Below, in pieces: positions 33,877-62,884 of a stretch of 64,000 nt of DNA. This stretch comes from Candidatus Thalassarchaeaceae archaeon (GTDB lineage Archaea; Thermoplasmatota; Poseidoniia; Poseidoniales; Thalassarchaeaceae), in NCBI GenBank assembly GCA_030749075.1, contig JASMKR010000031.1, positions 70,089 to 134,088 of the forward strand, in the 5' to 3' direction. Within the stretch, counting starts at the first letter, position 1, and every line of letters starts with the position of its first letter. Under the pieces are notes generated by a model. The model had not been told where the DNA came from. It made no database searches and saw only the letters and a list, made by a program, of their open reading frames with translations. The position numbers were made by a program, and so were the translations under genes.

Positions 33877-34053
33877 AATGTCATTCTCTCATCCACAGCA
33901 CCCTTTGAACCAATCCATTATCTTGCCTCAATCACACGCTATTCCAAGACCATGGTGGTTAGCCGCCACCCCATTCTAGCCATCTATGTCCGAACGGCGC
34001 TCCATCACCATGATAAATCACTCAAGTAGGGAAAATGGTACCGAGTGGGTAAC

Positions 34054-37000
34054 ATGCGGCGCAAGCAGACTGCCCTGCTATTCTCCTTCCTGATATTATC
34101 TAGCCTCGCCTTCGTCTCTCAAACACGCCCACAGTCTCCGGTGTCTTCGACCGATCCGAACCTCGCAGAAGGCAGCGAGTCCCCTGTCACTGACCAGGAC
34201 GGAGACCTAATCCCCGATCTCTACGAAGTCATTTTCGGTGATGACTACTTGTTGGAGACTGCGAATGTAGAGATGACCATCAATGGACTCGACCCCTCAG
34301 ATGCCACCGATAACCTCACCGATAACGACGGAGATGGGCTCACCGCCCTGCAGGAGTACTGTTGGCCCTACACCATTGACAGATGTTTCGAAGAGAGGAA
34401 CAGTCTTACTGGTAAGGCACCCGAGGAGACCGTGTCTGGCCTGAGGGAATACCTCGATCCCAGAGTTTCCGATACCGATGGTGATGGCCTTCCTGACGGC
34501 TACGAAGTATATATGTGCACAATTGGAGGCCTTTTCAAGAACAACCCAAACGACCCATTGAACTCGAAGAAGATTTGGGAATGCCAATTCTTCGACCCTC
34601 TCGACCCCAGCGATCTAATTGAGGACTTCGATCGGTGTGAGGCTGACTTCAGTTGGGGATGCGGCGATGGATTCGACTTCAACGGCGACGGAACTATCGA
34701 CATTGGCGAGAGATTCACAAACGCCGAAGAGTACCTCTTTGGCACTCCTCAAGAATGGATAACGGAGCGGGATGGACTTTGGTGCTATGGACAAATCTCT
34801 GGCCTGTCTGAAGATGCTTGTCAGACACAATACGACAGACCCACTTCTAATCATGGTTGGATGGGTACTGACCCTCGATTCGCCGATTCGGACTATTATT
34901 CATGGGACGAGGTCGTGGCCGTCGAGCTCATAGTTCCCGGGGATGGAATTCCTGATGGTTGGGAGGCTCACCACGGCCTGGACCCTCGGAATGCCAGCGA
35001 TTCCGTACTCGATAGCGACTCCGATGGATGGGATGGAAATAGGGATGGCTTCATTACTCCGGATGTAACTACGTCAACGGCCCACTGGGGAGAGTCATTC
35101 AGTAACTATGAGGAATATTCCATCGACTTCGATGAGGCATCCGGGGTCAGGCCAGGCCTCAGGGGGACCAAGGTTTCTTCGGAGCAGGGGCAGGTTCTAA
35201 ACTTCGATCACTCGACTGCAATAAGCCTCTTCGATCCTGCTGTCCACTCCGTGATTGCTGACCAACCGAGGGACCGCCTCATTGTCGGTTCGAGATACGG
35301 AATAACGGCCATAGATCCGTTTAGGGGAACAACCTCCAACTTCGAGTTCCAGCCAGGGATTGAGGGATTGACGATGAGTCGCTATACGATTGGTGACTCG
35401 GACTACCTCTTACTCGGAACAAATGTGGGATTTCACACCTTCCGGATGGAGAACGGCCTCCCTATGATGGACTCAATGAAAACTCAAGAGATAGGCCCCG
35501 TTTCTACCATAATTCCCCTAAAGACCAATTCTGTTGATCTTGACCTCCTACTTTTCGGGGGCTCGAGTGCATGGAAGGCCAAGTTGGCAGTGGGGTTCGA
35601 GTCCAACTCCTCTAGTTTCGAACCCCTTCCCCTCGTTGAGCTTTCCACAATGCTCTCTCACTCCAATGCCTCAGTTACCACGGCCGCGCATGTGGAGATG
35701 TCTGGAAGAGGCCCGCTTCTCTTCATAGGTACGGATGTTGGATTACTGGGTTGGAACACTACTGATGGGTCGAACTCGGTCGGCCAACCCTGGTGGATTT
35801 TCGACATTATGAACGCAGAATATTTCGTCAATACCAATCTCTTTGACTCCACCAATGCTGCTCGGGTAAACACCATTGTGATTGGCGATGGGATCGAGGG
35901 AGAGAGCGATGTCTGGATGGGGACAAGTGGGGGTCTGCATCGGATAAACATGAACCTGATAATATCTCAACCTACAGAGGCATTCGATAATGGAAGGATG
36001 CTCAATATCGATGGCCTGCTGTCTGGAGCAAACGACGTCCATGCAATTCTTCCACTAGATGGGATGGTTGCAGTGGGGTCAAAGGATGGCACTTGGTGCC
36101 TAGAGGGGGGATCCTCGGGGATAATAGGTCCTTTTCTTAACCAAACAGAGATTCCCGGGCTCGTAACTTCAATGGTCACTTTGGACAAAGAGGGGGAGGA
36201 GTGGCTCTTCGCTGGCATCTCCCCTGGCAGATACATGAACATAGCATCCATGAACCCTCACTCTGCTGACTCTGACTTGGATGGGATGCCCGATGGGTGG
36301 GAGTTCGCTTACGGCCTAGATCCAACAGACCCCTATGACAGCCTAAGGGATCCGGACGTCGATGGAGTTTCGATTTCTTGGAGTGACGATGGGTATTACA
36401 CGAGGCAATGGAGCAACTTGGATGAGTATAGATTCATTTCAGCCACAATGGACGGATTCAACGGTACCGACCCCCGACACTCTGACTCTGATGGAGATGG
36501 TTTGAGTGATGGAGAGGAGTATTGGGGGTGGTTCTTTGACTCGACCTCATTTGAATGCCATTACCTCAACGGGGCCTATATGTGCGATCCCAACACTGGG
36601 GAGTCAGCAAGGGAGGTCCATTTGGGTGGATGGCTAGGCTCGGGGTCAGGCGGCGGTAGCGATGGACCCACTGACCCAACCAATCCAGATTCGGATGGGG
36701 ACGGAATGCCCGATGGTTGGGAGATTCGCCATAGGAGGTGGTTGGGGGATGTCTATACCGGCGGAAACAATTGGACCCTAGACCCTAGGGACCCCTCGGA
36801 TGCTATGCAGGACGCCGACGGTGACGGACTCAGCAATATCTGCGAGTACGAGTGGGCAAGACTTCACAATCAAGTCATGACATTGGGTCTGGATACTCAC
36901 GGTGAATCGAAGGAATCGGCAGCAAACTGGTTCAGTACCGATCCTAATTCAGTGGATTCCGATCACGACTCCCTCCCAGATGGCTGGGAGGCCCGCTACT

Positions 37001-39771
37001 CGTGCCACTGGCCATCTGAAAATGCCGGAATCAACCCGATGAACGGCTCTGATTTTCTGAACAATCCCGACGGTGACGGTTACGACTCCAATCATGACGG
37101 AACACTGGAATTGGAAGAATCTCTCGTCAATTGGCTCGAATACCATCTCAAATCGAAAATCCTCCTGCATAATGGTACTTCATCCGGTGAAAATTATCCA
37201 GGTAATCTGACTTCAGTCTTGCCCCACGAGTCATGGGATGGACTAGCGCCAGGTTCCTTTGGCGAGTACATTGGAAGCTACTATGAATCGTTGAATGCTG
37301 CCCTGCCGATTGATGACATAGGCACATCTGACCCTCTTCGCGCTGATTCGGACAGGGACGGGATGCCGGATGGATGGGAAGTCTACAATGCCCGATGGAG
37401 CCTCTTTGAGCAAGACTGGACGCTCAACCCCGTGAATAGCGATGACAGGCTAGGTGACCCAGACGGTGACGGAATGAACAACTGGGAGGAGTACAACGCC
37501 ATCGACGGCCAGTTGAGTGAAAGCGATGGAACTATTTCTGTACCCCAGTTTTACCTATCTGATGCAGCGGGGGCACTCTTGGAGACTCCCTGGATTGGGG
37601 CCGAATCGTCTCTGTCGTTTGGATCATTCGTCACAGAAGAGCAGAGAAACTCGACGGGATTAACTGCCGATCCAAACAACCCTGACTCAGATGGTGATGG
37701 ATTGCTTGACGGTGTCGAGTTGATTTTCACCATGTGGAACTCAACCGACAGCGTCTGGACACTCAATCCATTGGTTCCAAACGATGGGTTCTATGACTCC
37801 GACGGCGACGGTATCCGTGATTCGACTGAACTGAACCTTACTGCCAATGGTCCGGTCAATGGTGACCTTTCTCCTCCCGATGCCCCATTGTTCTGGGAGG
37901 AGGCAGATCAATTGAATCACTTAGATTCCGTGAACCGAATTTTTAGAATATTATTCAAGAAGGAAGGCAGGGCTGAGCTGGCGATGAATCAATTCTACGA
38001 TTGGCAGGAGGGACACTCTGCCAAGCCTCTTCTTTCCTCAATAATTGGAATCACCGATCCAAACGAAGTCGACACCGATCGTGATGGGATGAGCGATGGG
38101 TATGAGTATTGGTTCACCGGCTGGGATCTTGAAAACAATCGTTGGAACATGAATCCCCTGAGTGATACCGATTCAGGTTATGACTCCGACGAAGATTCCT
38201 ACGACTGCAACGAAGATGGGGAGATTTCCGATTCTGAATCCTTCGACAACCTTGCTGAGTATGACTCCAGATGGTACGGAAAGAGGCTGGCCATAGGCAG
38301 CATGCCAAACGGCACAGGAGTGGTGTCCTATGGCTCGGATGCTGTAACCGCTCAAATAGAGGAAAATGGGCTTTCGATGGAAGCTGCGTGGGGGCAACTT
38401 TACCTGCAGTTCGCCACGAAGAGCCTGTCTTCTTCAGAGAAGATGGGCCTGATCAATTCTTTCAACCCTGACAACTTCAACCATACCCTAATTGGAATTA
38501 GCGACCCAACCGACGCAGACTCCGACAGGGATGGTATGCCCGACGGCTGGGAGTTCTGCTACTCCCTATATGCCGAGGTACTCCCAGTCAATGCCTTCCG
38601 CTGGTCGTTGAACCCGATTAATCCCCTCGATGTAGACTACGACCCCGATGCCGACGGTTGGTTCGACAGGATGATTGGGGACAATCCAGCTGAGCAAGGG
38701 ACGTGGGAGAATCGCGAGTTCTCGGCTTATGCGCCCAATCAGCAGATTTCAAACGGAGTCACTGCACTGTACTTCACAAATATCATGGAGTTCCACAATG
38801 GTACAAAACCACTCGATCCAGACTCAGATAGCGACGCAATGGCAATGATTCCAGTATTCCAAGACGGCATAATGACCGATTATGTCAGGGACATGAGCCT
38901 GTCCGATGGTCTTGAGATTTTCAAGTACGGTACAAACCCTCTCGATAATGACACAGACGGCGACATGATGCCAGACTTCTACGAGCACTACCGCGGATGG
39001 AATGAGACTAATGACAATTGGTCCTCTTTCTATAAAATCGAAGTGCAATGGCAGGAAGTCACTCCAAACAACTGGAAACCCGTGGACATCTCGAAGGGCT
39101 ACATCGCCAGACCCTCACTTGGCTGGACATGGTTCACTCACGATGCCACTGATCCATCTGACGCATCACAGGACGCGGATATGGATGGTGAATGGGCCTG
39201 TTCTGGCTCTTCCTGTACATATGAGCCGTACAATAACTTCCAAGAGTACTATGCTGTCGTTAATGCCACCCTATCCTCTCCCTCAGTTGTCCGCGCCTCC
39301 TCCCTATACGACTGCTCTGGGGACACCGTCGAGGAATGGTGGCAACTGAGGGAGACGCTGTTGGGCACTTGTTCTGGCTCCAACTCACTGTCATCCAATT
39401 ACTTGAGAATGAACAGAATCAACAATCAGGATTCACTCTACGCATTGATTATCGACGATAACGATGTTGACTACGAGATCGTCAACACGAGTGATGACAT
39501 CATCTTCGTCAATGGTGCTTGGACGGATGAATTTAATCGATTGGCAGGAGATAGATACCACCTGCCTAACGTCGGACTCGGAGAGAATCCCTATGGTTGG
39601 TGGTACCTGGATATCGACGGCGATCTCATTGCAGATGGGACCGACCCGACGAACTGGGACACCGATGGCGATTGGTTGAACGATTTCTTTGAGATAGATG
39701 ATGACCTATTGGATGGGGTGAGGGGAAACAGCGGTTCCCCCATCAGGTACGACGATCGCACTACCTCATGA
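34054..39771 (+). CDS. Giant (about 1,905-aa) secreted Ca-binding protein with ~22 thrombospondin-type-3-like DxDxDG..D..E repeats; no TM anchor
   Basis: Signal peptide is MRRKQTALLFSFLILSSLAFVSQTRP. Repeats include DTDGDGLPDGYE, DSDGDGMPDGWE, DSDRDGMPDGWE, DADGDGLSNICE and others spread over the whole protein. There is no C-terminal hydrophobic helix. The track ORF begins at a GTG at 34045. Confidence 0.75.
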   Translation: MRRKQTALLFSFLILSSLAFVSQTRPQSPVSSTDPNLAEGSESPVTDQDGDLIPDLYEVIFGDDYLLETANVEMTINGLDPSDATDNLTDNDGDGLTALQEYCWPYTIDRCFEERNSLTGKAPEETVSGLREYLDPRVSDTDGDGLPDGYEVYMCTIGGLFKNNPNDPLNSKKIWECQFFDPLDPSDLIEDFDRCEADFSWGCGDGFDFNGDGTIDIGERFTNAEEYLFGTPQEWITERDGLWCYGQISGLSEDACQTQYDRPTSNHGWMGTDPRFADSDYYSWDEVVAVELIVPGDGIPDGWEAHHGLDPRNASDSVLDSDSDGWDGNRDGFITPDVTTSTAHWGESFSNYEEYSIDFDEASGVRPGLRGTKVSSEQGQVLNFDHSTAISLFDPAVHSVIADQPRDRLIVGSRYGITAIDPFRGTTSNFEFQPGIEGLTMSRYTIGDSDYLLLGTNVGFHTFRMENGLPMMDSMKTQEIGPVSTIIPLKTNSVDLDLLLFGGSSAWKAKLAVGFESNSSSFEPLPLVELSTMLSHSNASVTTAAHVEMSGRGPLLFIGTDVGLLGWNTTDGSNSVGQPWWIFDIMNAEYFVNTNLFDSTNAARVNTIVIGDGIEGESDVWMGTSGGLHRINMNLIISQPTEAFDNGRMLNIDGLLSGANDVHAILPLDGMVAVGSKDGTWCLEGGSSGIIGPFLNQTEIPGLVTSMVTLDKEGEEWLFAGISPGRYMNIASMNPHSADSDLDGMPDGWEFAYGLDPTDPYDSLRDPDVDGVSISWSDDGYYTRQWSNLDEYRFISATMDGFNGTDPRHSDSDGDGLSDGEEYWGWFFDSTSFECHYLNGAYMCDPNTGESAREVHLGGWLGSGSGGGSDGPTDPTNPDSDGDGMPDGWEIRHRRWLGDVYTGGNNWTLDPRDPSDAMQDADGDGLSNICEYEWARLHNQVMTLGLDTHGESKESAANWFSTDPNSVDSDHDSLPDGWEARYSCHWPSENAGINPMNGSDFLNNPDGDGYDSNHDGTLELEESLVNWLEYHLKSKILLHNGTSSGENYPGNLTSVLPHESWDGLAPGSFGEYIGSYYESLNAALPIDDIGTSDPLRADSDRDGMPDGWEVYNARWSLFEQDWTLNPVNSDDRLGDPDGDGMNNWEEYNAIDGQLSESDGTISVPQFYLSDAAGALLETPWIGAESSLSFGSFVTEEQRNSTGLTADPNNPDSDGDGLLDGVELIFTMWNSTDSVWTLNPLVPNDGFYDSDGDGIRDSTELNLTANGPVNGDLSPPDAPLFWEEADQLNHLDSVNRIFRILFKKEGRAELAMNQFYDWQEGHSAKPLLSSIIGITDPNEVDTDRDGMSDGYEYWFTGWDLENNRWNMNPLSDTDSGYDSDEDSYDCNEDGEISDSESFDNLAEYDSRWYGKRLAIGSMPNGTGVVSYGSDAVTAQIEENGLSMEAAWGQLYLQFATKSLSSSEKMGLINSFNPDNFNHTLIGISDPTDADSDRDGMPDGWEFCYSLYAEVLPVNAFRWSLNPINPLDVDYDPDADGWFDRMIGDNPAEQGTWENREFSAYAPNQQISNGVTALYFTNIMEFHNGTKPLDPDSDSDAMAMIPVFQDGIMTDYVRDMSLSDGLEIFKYGTNPLDNDTDGDMMPDFYEHYRGWNETNDNWSSFYKIEVQWQEVTPNNWKPVDISKGYIARPSLGWTWFTHDATDPSDASQDADMDGEWACSGSSCTYEPYNNFQEYYAVVNATLSSPSVVRASSLYDCSGDTVEEWWQLRETLLGTCSGSNSLSSNYLRMNRINNQDSLYALIIDDNDVDYEIVNTSDDIIFVNGAWTDEFNRLAGDRYHLPNVGLGENPYGWWYLDIDGDLIADGTDPTNWDTDGDWLNDFFEIDDDLLDGVRGNSGSPIRYDDRTTS

Positions 39772-40280
39772 CCTCAATCAGTTATGTGCCCAAGCCCAAT
39801 CGAGGGACCATGGTGGGCGAAGACGGGATACCGGCCCCCGACTCGCCCGTAGAGGACAAACTAATCTTCCTGCAAGAGAATATGGTTGGTTTTGTAAGCC
39901 AGTATAGCCTTCCCGCCATCGAAATTGCGCTCGTCCTCTCCAAGTACCTAAGAATCTTGACCGAATCCCTAGTTGAGCATGCAAATACCCATCTCGAGAC
40001 CATCCCGGAAGACCTTCTACGAGCAAGACACCTCGAACCACTCCCTATCGCCTCCGCTCTTTCCGAATTTCCCCTAGAAGCACTCATCTACAGGGTGGAC
40101 CGGGATAGGATGGACATATTAGATACCATTCTGAGAACCTCAATCAACAAGACCGAACTACCATTTCCCCCAGCCATAACACTCTTGAGGGAGTGGGAGG
40201 AAATCGTCCGAGCCCAACTATCGAGTGCAACAACCCCAGGTCACCTGTTCAGTCCCTTGGAGTTACCCAATGGATTCTAG
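39768..40280 (+). CDS. Hypothetical protein (170 aa), translationally coupled (ATGA overlap) to the TSP3-repeat giant gene
   Basis: Its ATG overlaps the stop of the preceding gene (ctcATGAcc). It has no TM segment or recognisable motif. Confidence 0.4.
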   Translation: MTSISYVPKPNRGTMVGEDGIPAPDSPVEDKLIFLQENMVGFVSQYSLPAIEIALVLSKYLRILTESLVEHANTHLETIPEDLLRARHLEPLPIASALSEFPLEALIYRVDRDRMDILDTILRTSINKTELPFPPAITLLREWEEIVRAQLSSATTPGHLFSPLELPNGF

Positions 40281-61000: not shown

Positions 61001-62884
61001 ATCTCTCACTCTATTCGGCTGTCCATTAACGTCCAGAGGGTAGAGGGGCTGTACACAATCGCTGCTGGAACGGGTGGACTCGGGGCCGAGCCAGGCGAAT
61101 TCGCAGTATTTTCCTTATCCGTTAAGAACATTGGAAACGGGCCCACGCAGTATTTGATTTCATGTGACAGTCCTAACCGTTGGCTGATTAACATCGGCAA
61201 TAGCCAGTCATCCAATGTCACTCTCGGACCTCTCAGCAGGCTTCAGTTCGTCCCAATCCCAATACGTGTTAGGGTCCCGCCATCTTCAGGGGGACTTCCC
61301 GCAGGAACCACTGAACATGTAACCTGTTTGACTACGTCTGTGAACGACCCCACCCTCCAGACAACCGAAGAAGCTGAGGTCGAGGTATTCGAGAGCCGCT
61401 CTTTCTCGACAGAAATTTTCGATGCTGAGGCCAACCCTCTCGGCCCCATTGCTCTAGCGGAGTTCCGTTCAGTTCTCAATGGAGACTACGTCTCAACATT
61501 GCTGGCAATAAACAATGAAGGAAACATTCCCCTTCAATTTGAGGTCAGAGCCCTCTCCTCGAGCAACTTCTGGCCAATCCAAGTGTACGAAACAGGGGAA
61601 GGGCCGCCAATCGGCGAGATAGAGTCACTCACGGTGGTGCTGCAACCAGGTGACTCGGTTGAAATCAGCATCAGGACAATTGTTCCCCTTTCGGCACAGA
61701 AGGGTGACAGGAACACCATTACCATCAAAACCACATTGGAAGGGGGCCCAATTGTCAACAATGGAACCGAGTTGGAGGTCAGGGAGATCACCACACTGGA
61801 TGTCCAAATCTCTTCGGGATTTTCCATTGCCATGGGGAGGTCCGGTAACGCTGAGGTATTGCTTCACAATTCCGGAAACGTCCCCCTCTCAATCGAATTG
61901 ACACTGGGAACCCTTCCCACTGGATGGTCAGGGGGGTTCCTTTCGGGAAGGCAGTTCTCTATGGATATGAATCGAGACTCAGTCATCAGTATTGGACTAG
62001 AATTACCTGGCAGCATCCAGCCCGGACCAATCGCAGATAGCGTGCCCGTAATTGTCGAATCGACATCCCCAACTGGGGTCGTCGAAGTTCAGACGATTAA
62101 TCTCGATGTGACTGTCGTTCCTTCCGTATGGCTTTTGGTAGATGGTGAGATCACCCAATTACAGGGAATTGAGATCAATCAGCATCAGAGTTTCGTGGTG
62201 AATGTGCAGAATCTGGGGAACATTGCTACAGGGGTCAGCATGGGGGTGGAGGGATTGGAAGGATGGGATATTCTTCTAGTCCCAGCCTCCATCGACGACC
62301 TAGGCATCGGAGATTCGGCCGAAGTGAGTGTGTCTATTCGCCCAACGACATCTTCAGATGACGGCTTGAAGCAACTGCGCATTATTGCCAATTCTACAGT
62401 TACAAGTGAGGATGTCACTATCACCGATTCAGTCTACTCCGTTGATGTCAGTAGGGCTAGGCCATCGAATAATGGTGGGTTAGCAGGGGCTCTGGAAGCC
62501 ATTGGGCTACCTGCTTGGACACTTGCCATCTTCTTCCTGTTTTCTGTATCGGCCATCATAGTGGCGGGGATGAGAATGCACAGGACTCACGAGTCACTCA
62601 GACCCGAAGAGGAGATTATCCCTCGTGGTTCGGCTTTGCAGGCCGGCACCAAGGCCGAAAGACGTGCTGCGGCATTGGAAACCTCCTCCTCGGGTGAAGT
62701 CGTTACGGGAGAGGTTTCTTCCAGCGAGATTCAAGATGTCTTGACAACTTCTCTCCCCCCATTGCCCATTCATAGAGCCCCCGAAGGGGCTCCACCACTC
62801 CCTCGAGGGGGCCTTCCTGATGGATGGACGATGGAACAGTGGGTTTCCTACGGCTCCCTCTGGTGGGAACAGAACAGCCCCTAG
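58088..62884 (+). CDS. Large (1,598-aa) cell-surface subtilisin-like protease (peptidase S8) with ~1,100-aa C-terminal beta-sandwich extension, TM anchor and cytoplasmic tail
   Basis: The signal peptide is MAGLKSLFGVLGLLLLSPFAHS. The Asp motif is VIGISDTGLD, the His motif is HGTHVTATLLG and the Ser motif is GSSMATPVVAGAAAMA. The C-terminus is LPAWTLAIFFLFSVSAIIVAG followed by RMHRTHE... The extracellular part is rich in N-x-S/T. Confidence 0.8.
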   Translation: MAGLKSLFGVLGLLLLSPFAHSISFEVDDFEDSTSHSNQISSQSVWRMLTNPVHSTYQLTESTGLIHSPYGSFDPATHPVPLGPWAEVGLESPTRAGIYILQSSSSDLVALTEQLYSLEIPIIDLIPDEALVVSLPEIRRDEALRQMQHLPGVRWSGDFPTLWTISPELLPLLGFDDIEVDLDVIPSSNLMPHEIADLSTELAALSRPSDTPPNCDPYLCQLRSVSPSIITTLAIDSRIIKIEPGPTLAIHNSNASLIAGLAAALTTSDDLLTGDGEVIGISDTGLDADHGDFEGRLRNPIYNQFGPDNSGADANSGHGTHVTATLLGDGSGDSIATGMVPEATFHFYQLEVDSSGLLARWGSLYEMFLHSWQNDAKIQTNSWGSDNLVGQYTSDSRSADSFTYDYPKFLVLFSAGDMAEAGVNPPSTAKNVLSVGSATTGAFDSDPVGTVHVSSSVGPTLDGRIKPDLVAPGVMLCSARAQEAAFTTGGPCSLTNHEDGSTPLYMTLNGSSMATPVVAGAAAMARQYLREVAGISEPRSDLIRALLVNGADDLGEPDVPNPSEGWGQLNLTNSLYPTKGGQNLSVLYDYGRALLPGHSFIYTFELFEGVGFDATLAWNDREGSATADQNASRLVNDLDLTIISPDGTAYRGNNFMDGTSSSGGNRDQLNNLERVRLPTAEAGLWTIQIGHSGGFSQDFSLLFSAMAEERMEADLTVLQDSITTLNQNPLQDETISIQLAWSNQAASQTGQYSIKLEDISEGVVIRTDSFSSLVGGSVESHSLYHSFSTTGEHVLRLTLDYLSQVDELNDETTGTDNNVFEFTFEVTQIGVRIIPLMENGSTPSSFEEGIQARSRDLDPSTESWVVFQLELRNEGTSEIDVKLGVTQIQMVDENGILKSPGDEWWRILNESGDGDNDFWTLSPFGQDGDRRIISLNLSDQDADISNSAEARYALPGNFVSDLTLYDKNAPTISHSIRLSINVQRVEGLYTIAAGTGGLGAEPGEFAVFSLSVKNIGNGPTQYLISCDSPNRWLINIGNSQSSNVTLGPLSRLQFVPIPIRVRVPPSSGGLPAGTTEHVTCLTTSVNDPTLQTTEEAEVEVFESRSFSTEIFDAEANPLGPIALAEFRSVLNGDYVSTLLAINNEGNIPLQFEVRALSSSNFWPIQVYETGEGPPIGEIESLTVVLQPGDSVEISIRTIVPLSAQKGDRNTITIKTTLEGGPIVNNGTELEVREITTLDVQISSGFSIAMGRSGNAEVLLHNSGNVPLSIELTLGTLPTGWSGGFLSGRQFSMDMNRDSVISIGLELPGSIQPGPIADSVPVIVESTSPTGVVEVQTINLDVTVVPSVWLLVDGEITQLQGIEINQHQSFVVNVQNLGNIATGVSMGVEGLEGWDILLVPASIDDLGIGDSAEVSVSIRPTTSSDDGLKQLRIIANSTVTSEDVTITDSVYSVDVSRARPSNNGGLAGALEAIGLPAWTLAIFFLFSVSAIIVAGMRMHRTHESLRPEEEIIPRGSALQAGTKAERRAAALETSSSGEVVTGEVSSSEIQDVLTTSLPPLPIHRAPEGAPPLPRGGLPDGWTMEQWVSYGSLWWEQNSP

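Follow-up and report, generated by a model that had tools for sequence, protein, structure and literature searches.

A giant, apparently exported protein of Poseidoniales that combines thrombospondin-type-3-like loops with a seven-bladed beta-propeller

What use does a planktonic marine archaeon have for an acidic protein of nearly two thousand residues that is studded with calcium-binding-type loops and ends without a hydrophobic anchor? This question is raised by one gene in a 64,000-nucleotide stretch of DNA (the window) from a Candidatus Thalassarchaeaceae archaeon of the order Poseidoniales (contig JASMKR010000031.1, positions 70,089 to 134,088 of the forward strand). The original prediction, made from the letters alone, described its product, hereafter the giant, as a secreted protein of 1,905 residues built along its entire length from about 22 thrombospondin type 3 (TSP3)-like repeats. 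The organisms concerned, marine group II (MGII), are the most abundant archaea of the surface ocean but remain uncultured, and their envelope and their attachment to particles or phytoplankton are experimentally uncharted. The reading that we favor, with a probability of roughly 0.55, is that the giant serves as a calcium-stiffened extracellular scaffold displaying a fast-evolving, probably glycan-binding head, in the manner of an adhesin or lectin.

The gene itself is well defined. Its reading frame is open from 34045 to 39771 on the plus strand, and the listing of open reading frames (ORFs) took an upstream GTG as the first start. Every orthologue begins MRRKQ or MRRSQ, so that the ATG at 34054 is the correct start and the predicted length of 1,905 aa stands. 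The composition is strongly acidic, with 11.9% Asp and 18% Asp plus Glu as compared with 4.9% Lys plus Arg. The nearest species-level relative of the gene lies on contig PBMR01000015.1 of a metagenome-assembled genome (MAG) and is 91% identical.

A survey of GTDB species representatives yielded 79 best loci, all of Poseidoniales type, with 63 complete genes; 30 orthologues were aligned for the analyses that follow. The distribution among related genomes, a check to which the original prediction had pointed, proved to be order-wide, with full-length orthologues (42-91% identity) in both families, Thalassarchaeaceae and Poseidoniaceae. The complete genes, from 63 species, encode 1,891-1,924 aa and 16-23 DxDxDG motifs each. 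Identity between the families is 43% for the giant and 30-56% for cytoplasmic neighbors; within the family it is 62% for the giant, 42-71% for cytoplasmic neighbors, and 56% for DnaJ. This neighbor-like constraint, together with the fixed length, points to a core function and away from one that varies between strains. Two full-length orthologues were found under other names, in a single-cell genome labeled "Deltaproteobacteria bacterium" (JAOMAZ010000002.1, locus L062) and in a MAG labeled "Salinimicrobium sp." (CAXRAI010000019.1, locus L065). Both have an MGIIa-type N terminus and the neighbor gene described below, and therefore probably reflect Poseidoniales contamination or misbinning.

Most of the giant is organized around a 12-residue loop of the form D1-x-D3-x-D5-G-x-x-D9-x-x-E12. 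The core motif D-x-D-x-D-G occurs 17 times, as compared with 0.36 +/- 0.60 occurrences expected (500 shuffles, maximum 3). A hidden Markov model (HMM) trained on the giant's own 15 canonical loops recovered 25 sites, i.e., the training loops (23-35 bits) and 10 weak, degenerate sites. The Pfam model of bacterial TSP3 repeats (TSP3_bac, PF18884) scored 36.7 bits over 5 stretches of the giant, above its cut-off of 25; among five other orthologues tested, four reached 25.0-55.3 bits and one fell below the threshold at 13.9. By this Pfam criterion, the giant is a TSP3_bac repeat protein. The eukaryotic model TSP_3 (PF02412), with which the original prediction had proposed to scan, was run and gave no match to the giant at E <= 1; the bacterial model matches instead. 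HemolysinCabind (RTX/beta-roll) and Dockerin_1 likewise found no match in the giant at E <= 1 or in the five orthologues at E <= 10. The motif and loop-HMM counts make about 22 repeats a fair estimate. Their proposed extension over the entire protein does not hold, since residues 366-731 contain none and are occupied by a beta-propeller.

The loops come in two types and make up roughly 12 A/B pairs, of which three precede residue 360 and nine or ten follow residue 732. The A loop conforms to [TS]DPxxxD[ST]DxDG[ML]PDG[WY]E, and a B loop (DxDxDG...N..EY) follows 30-40 residues after it. Canonical A loops in the C-terminal region begin at residues 739, 811, 879, 968, 1098, 1211, 1340, 1489, 1633 and 1869. 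In 12 A loops from each of 30 orthologues (360 instances), positions 1, 3, 5, 9 and 12 are D, D, D, D and E without exception. This is the ligand geometry of the EF-hand, and the motif indicates that the loops probably chelate Ca2+. In the N-terminal loop region, invariant alignment columns include Asp, Gly and Cys; over the whole giant, the invariant positions belong almost entirely to Asp, Gly, Trp, Pro, Cys, Asn or Glu, as is typical of structural and Ca2+-ligand roles. At the DNA level, repetition is confined to dispersed 36-nt loop cores of 60-75% identity. Recent tandem repeats, subject to expansion or contraction, were thereby ruled out, and the calcium modules are therefore old rather than a recently expanding array. 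AlphaFold2 modeled the N-terminal loop region with mixed confidence (predicted local distance difference test [pLDDT], 30-70), and its model of residues 736-1905, computed from the 30-sequence alignment, was unusable (pLDDT, 39).

The segment between the two loop regions is of a different kind. From the 30-orthologue alignment, AlphaFold2 folded residues 367-723 into seven four-stranded blades with a pLDDT of ~90, which supports the beta-propeller that had been suspected at aa ~380-760. The blades carry the motif phi-phi-phi-G-[TS]-x-x-G-phi (LIVGSRYGI, LLLGTNVGF, LFIGTDVGL, VWMGTSGGL, VAVGSKDGT). A Foldseek search of the PDB with this model returned beta-propellers exclusively; these included the periplasmic domains of BT4663 and BT4673 of Bacteroides thetaiotaomicron, whose structures had the highest sequence identity among the top matches (13-15%). 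Since fold alone cannot tell propeller families apart, a profile of the family was compared with all PDB sequences, and it singled out sensors of the hybrid two-component system (HTCS) type, namely 4A2L (BT4663; E 2.6e-8) and 3V9F (E 9.9e-8), in alignments that cover several blades through the motif (L/V)(W/L)(V/I)GT..GL. A single-sequence phmmer search of the PDB with the giant found nothing meaningful, the HTCS propellers being reached by the family profile only. One orthologue also matched the N-terminal propeller of PorZ (PorZ_N_b_propeller) weakly. Because the family profile matches 4A2L and 3V9F, the propeller is best classed, at the level of profile similarity, as a distant relative within the "regulator propeller" lineage. 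Regulator propellers take part in glycan sensing, and the PDB titles of the matched sensors record that characterized members bind glycans.

The propeller is also the fastest-evolving part of the giant. Between the two families, its identity falls to 21-26%, whereas the calcium modules retain 45-50%; judged from these alignments, it evolves about twice as fast. A phmmer search of 1.84 billion cluster representatives with the propeller found 41 proteins, nearly all of them full-length family members or fragments of the same region. One further match, a 656-aa protein (P0143), aligned in eight short stretches. In its primary sequence, the propeller is thus lineage-restricted.

Both ends of the giant are conserved. 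A Kyte-Doolittle scan found a single window above 1.4 in the whole protein, at residues 4-25, where the n-region MRRK is followed by a hydrophobic core of 15-17 residues and AlphaFold2 places a helix at residues 2-23. The exported type of the protein is borne out by this n-region and core. The signal may be a cleaved Sec signal peptide, for which the core length speaks, or an uncleaved signal-anchor. The latter is possible because the segment is unusually conserved and because the N termini of Poseidoniaceae (...ASLLFMSQFPAISPV...) show, as judged by eye, no clear small-x-small cleavage site past the core. Within Thalassarchaeaceae, identity is 76-96% in the N-terminal segment, as compared with 60-88% in the adjacent mature region; in a neighboring beta-helix giant that served as a control, the N-terminal 45 residues (56%) did not differ in this way from the rest (58%).

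At the other end, the giant closes with a hydrophilic tail (...RGNSGSPIRYDDRTT). The stop codon and this tail are kept in 63/63 complete orthologues, with 57-95% tail identity across the order, and a C-terminal hydrophobic segment is absent from the giant and from all of them. Elsewhere in the window, and elsewhere in the orthologous loci L002, L004 and L005, no reading frame contains the tail motif. Neither S-layer domains (Pfam, NCBIfam) nor PGF-CTERM or another archaeosortase signal were detected in the giant. The other exported giants of the window do possess a transmembrane (TM) segment near the C terminus, at residues 3135-3158 of a 3,168-aa protein, 1347-1374 of a 1,445-aa protein and 1465-1498 of a 1,598-aa protein. 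The contrast that the original prediction had drawn with these neighbors is therefore real. Its broader statement that the protein has no membrane anchor is confirmed for the C terminus only, as the N-terminal segment could anchor the chain.

The predicted extracellular chain may be braced further. Nineteen cysteines are present in the giant, none inside a canonical loop, and 14 are each kept in at least 28 of 30 orthologues. These 14 are spaced as if paired in about seven local disulfides (103/111, 155/177, 195/203, 244/256, 835/844, 1716/1721 and 1754/1773). Among the N-x-S/T sequons, 4 are invariant and about 12 are kept in at least 75% of orthologues, and some may be glycosylated.

Comparison with known systems assigns the giant to an already known group of calcium-dependent proteins that act at the surface or in adhesion. 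Bacterial TSP3-repeat proteins, which include the TSP3 linker of OmpA-family proteins of Bacteroidetes, share the 12-residue Ca2+ loop and its flanks ([TS]DPxxxDxDxDGxxDxxE), and they provide the PF18884 match. The best NCBIfam matches are Myxococcus CglD and MtsD (NF033765, NF047639), which are exported acidic surface or matrix proteins, as the giant appears to be, and align with it over ~200 residues of loop modules. However, the giant scores 42.5 against a cut-off of 400 and 37 against 800 in these models, and it has no VWA or OmpA domain. It further differs from bacterial TSP3 proteins in being archaeal, in its central propeller and unique conserved C-terminal tail, and in A/B pairs that lie 70-240 residues apart instead of in a tight tandem array. 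With eukaryotic thrombospondin and COMP, it would share a repeated D-x-D-x-D-G-x-x-D Ca2+ motif in a secreted glycoprotein and a presumably Ca2+-dependent folding, with which the failure of AlphaFold2 in modeling without ions is consistent. Unlike those proteins, the giant has a Glu at loop position 12, as in the EF-hand, fails to match PF02412, and has no intra-repeat disulfide pairs, lectin-like TSP_C domain, EGF domain or coiled coil. Its propeller resembles those of the HTCS sensors (BT4663, 4A2L; 3V9F; BT4673, 3OTT/3VA6) in the seven blades and the motif phi-phi-G-T-x-x-G-L. Relative to these sensors and PorZ, the giant has one propeller instead of two and lacks the YYY domain, a TM segment, a kinase and the C-terminal domain of the type IX secretion system (T9SS). 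By these sequence comparisons, it is neither a thrombospondin, a CglD/MtsD orthologue, nor a member of an archaeosortase or S-layer family.

Related observations exist for archaea. Thrombospondin genes are widespread in Poseidoniales and have been read as adhesion factors (Rinke et al. 2019, PMC6461757; repeated in PMC8821943), calcium-dependent adhesion domains have been reported in MGII (Orsi et al. 2015, PMC4511931), and proteins with TSP3-like repeats have been detected in Nitrosopumilus proteomes (Bayer et al. 2019, PMC6593220). The claim that TSP3 repeats are unusual in archaea was therefore overstated, and the giant gene is very probably among the Poseidoniales genes already counted (PMC6461757, PMC4511931). 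In the portions of these two reports available to us, annotation is at the KEGG orthology (KO) or domain level, and the architecture, propeller, orthology and synteny are not described. Relative to that text, the HTCS-type propeller, the A/B loop pairs, the order-wide orthology with a divergent neighbor gene, and the C-terminal tail appear to be new.

How, then, might the giant work? As a calcium-stiffened scaffold with a displayed head, it would be a cell-surface protein orthologous throughout Poseidoniales and exported by Sec. Some 25 EF-hand-type loops in about 12 A/B pairs, each probably chelating Ca2+ from seawater, would act with the seven or so conserved cysteine pairs and the conserved sequons to fix an acidic chain that could not fold otherwise as a rigid, extended scaffold. 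The propeller, placed after the third module and apparently sharing its lineage with the periplasmic propellers by which Bacteroides HTCS proteins sense glycans, would be the rapidly evolving head and would make contact with an external ligand. The most likely ligand is a polysaccharide or glycoconjugate carried by particles, by algae or by the cell's own envelope. Retention at the cell could be brought about by the N-terminal segment as a signal-anchor or by noncovalent docking through the C-terminal tail. A neighborhood rich in exported giants, including a fusion with the oligosaccharyltransferase STT3/AglB, fits such a role. Several observations weigh against it. Strong order-wide conservation is atypical for adhesins. 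A glycan is the probable ligand by analogy only; HTCS sensors bind glycan through two propellers and a YYY domain, whereas the giant offers a single propeller and nothing else, and single-sequence Pfam searches of six proteins found neither Reg_prop (PF07494) nor Y_Y_Y at E <= 10. Because the invariant residues of the propeller are structural (Gly, Trp), no conserved binding site was identified in it. The sequons are not enriched (22, as compared with 18 +/- 3.9 by chance), and only their positional conservation is informative. Finally, the term "rigid extended scaffold" is used by analogy to the structures of thrombospondin and of bacterial TSP3 proteins, because the C-terminal 1,170 residues are unmodeled.

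The same features can be arranged otherwise. The main rival, which we consider doubtful, is that the giant has a structural, housekeeping part in the envelope, either resembling an S-layer protein or acting as a scaffold associated with an S-layer. It would be held by Ca2+ bridges and protein contacts, and its propeller and tail would be interfaces for assembly instead of sites that bind a ligand. This rival owes its rank to the fixed-length orthologue found throughout both families (63/63 complete genes) and to an evolutionary rate equal to that of DnaJ and other cytoplasmic neighbors, both of which are unlike strain-variable adhesins. The invariant synteny, the conserved N terminus and C-terminal tail, the conserved sequons and the giant AglB/STT3 gene 9 kb upstream also agree with an envelope role, and S-layers are commonly Ca2+-dependent. 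The lack of an S-layer domain or archaeosortase signal tells against it, and the divergence of the propeller between the families fits an outward, variable surface better than a lattice contact. Loss of the signal by cleavage would instead make the giant a released protein; once shed, it would link cells with particles or exopolymers as a matrix or aggregation factor dependent on Ca2+. The signal-peptide length of the hydrophobic core agrees with this, as does the absence of a C-terminal TM segment, which the other giants of the window have, and of a lipobox or sortase-type signal; CglD and MtsD work in a surface matrix or in cohesion (a locus cited in PMC6593220). We nevertheless find release unlikely, as the expense of a freely diffusing 210-kDa protein would presumably be high for a planktonic cell whose genome measures ~2 Mb, and the conserved N-terminal segment and tail suggest retention interfaces.

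Very improbable, in turn, is an extracellular enzyme, with a hydrolase or other activity housed in the inserts between loops, or a Ca2+ buffer or store. About 60% of the giant is without a fold assignment and exported S8 proteases are among its neighbors, which leaves room for a catalytic function; no catalytic family was found, however, in Pfam, NCBIfam or the PDB with single sequences and the family profile, and the invariant residues are of structural and Ca2+-ligand type. Seawater contains ~10 mM Ca2+, so that buffering would be pointless. A bolder combination, which we rate as quite unlikely, makes the giant the principal, noncovalently attached envelope scaffold of these archaea, equivalent to an S-layer and built from an undescribed paired-EF-hand-loop module. 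Its propeller, of lectin type, would fasten the cell to polysaccharide of algae, and the rapid divergence of the propeller would reflect selection by ligands or viruses.

The giant is a near-universal, marker-like, predicted surface protein of its order with a fixed architecture, and its gene is thus a target for metaproteomic localization, for labeling with antibodies or in the style of fluorescence in situ hybridization (FISH), and for glycan-binding tests of the recombinant propeller. A variable propeller on a conserved stalk may record pressure from ligands or viruses. No new biological principle is involved; surface proteins with calcium loops are common among marine prokaryotes, and Poseidoniales were already known to have them.

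Table 1. Features of the giant gene and its surroundings (positions in the window; residues of the predicted protein)
Feature	Position	Strand	Remarks
TSP3-type giant gene	34054..39771	+	1,905 codons plus TGA stop
Predicted N-terminal export signal, residues 1-25	34054..34128	+	MRRKQ, hydrophobic core ALLFSFLILSSLAFV, invariant S-Q
N-terminal putative calcium-loop region, residues 40-360	34171..35133	+	About three loop pairs, 8 conserved cysteines; motif and loop-HMM sites
Loops in the N-terminal region, by residue			DQDGDLIPDLYE (47), DNDGDGLTALQE (90), DTDGDGLPDGYE (140), DFNGDGTIDIGE (208), GDGIPDGWE (296), DSDSDGWD (320)
Seven-bladed beta-propeller, residues 367-723	35152..36222	+	AlphaFold2, Foldseek, family profile
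C-terminal putative calcium-loop region, residues 732-1884	36247..39705	+	About 9-10 A/B modules; motif and loop-HMM sites
Conserved C-terminal tail, residues 1885-1905	39706..39768	+	LLDG[IV]RG[ND]S(G)SP[IL]RYD[DS]R.T, hydrophilic, no anchor
Metallo-beta-lactamase-fold (MBL) gene, 268 aa	33070..33876	-	Pfam Lactamase_B, Lactamase_B_2
Intergenic element ATGTCCGAACGGCGCTCCATCACCATGATAAAT, ~33 nt	33985..34018	.	Aligned across both families (loci L001, L002, L004, L005)
STT3/AglB fusion, 3,168 aa	15320-24826	+	9 kb upstream of the giant gene
MalT-like STAND NTPase, 843 aa	30538-33069	+	TPR repeats, weak N-terminal helix-turn-helix
S8 protease, 1,598 aa	58088-62884		Exported, membrane-anchored
Conserved ~156-aa protein	39810-40280	+	Downstream; no family match, no hydrophobic segment

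The surroundings of the gene (Table 1) are nearly as constant as the gene itself. In 64/64 orthologous loci, the MBL gene lies upstream on the opposite strand, divergent from the giant gene, with a median gap of 187 nt. This divergent pair is unusually rigid. NCBIfam offers only generic MBL or RNase Z-like matches for the MBL gene, and a functional link to the giant could therefore not be drawn. The gap contains the conserved intergenic element, and a TATA-like ATAAAT precedes the ATG by about 40 nt. No Rfam family matches the element, and the window has a single copy of it. Read on the minus strand, the element forms a mini-ORF (M-x-M-M-E-R-R-S-D...), within which loci differ in a pattern that resembles changes at third codon positions. 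The element is a candidate promoter or operator of the giant gene or of the divergent pair, or alternatively a micro-ORF.

Farther upstream, the order STT3 giant, S8 protease, beta-helix giant and candidate regulator of the STAND-TPR type is conserved, with an insertion of 3-4 genes into this block in Poseidoniaceae. Neighboring genes carry archaeal markers, e.g., PF01877 and DUF7577. The STAND NTPase keeps its place between the beta-helix giant, which is the 1,445-aa exported protein of the window, and the MBL/TSP3 pair across the order, and it is a candidate regulator of the surface-protein neighborhood. In the 3,168-aa protein, a multispan oligosaccharyltransferase membrane domain of the STT3/AglB type (residues ~395-793) is joined to an extracellular part of more than 2,300 residues, which contains a CarboxypepD_reg domain, and to the C-terminal TM segment; the fusion is kept as a 3,171-aa protein in loci L002 and L003.

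Downstream, a listed 170-aa ORF appeared to overlap the stop of the giant gene by 4 nt (start at 39768) and was considered as a translationally coupled membrane partner. This was ruled out: the product looks soluble, and the ORF does not overlap the giant gene because its conserved start is Met15, at 39810. The resulting ~156-aa protein retains 52% identity in MGIIb and 37% in MGIIa. A gene of this kind (~155 aa) is the downstream neighbor in 29/56 loci, those of Thalassarchaeaceae. In Poseidoniaceae (27/56 loci), it is separated from the giant gene by another gene of ~1,800 aa, directly downstream on the same strand, that encodes an extra giant of 1,772-1,808 aa (L005:15818-21244, L004:15886-21204). 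The extra giant has no Pfam matches and is absent at the equivalent position in Thalassarchaeaceae, and its lack of similarity to the TSP3 giant ruled out a tandem paralogue. A single operon is argued against by an intervening gene on the opposite strand.

Other giants in these loci end in tails of their own. The motif PLPxxGLPxGWTMEQWxxYG follows the C-terminal TM segment, on the cytoplasmic side, both in the S8 protease of the window (62795-62854) and at L005:21155-21214, two otherwise unrelated membrane-anchored giants in which 15/20 residues of the tail are identical. The tail of the beta-helix giant is looser (GWxWD...W..DP.Y). To judge from these shared endings, such a tail may serve to sort or dock the giant surface proteins of MGII.

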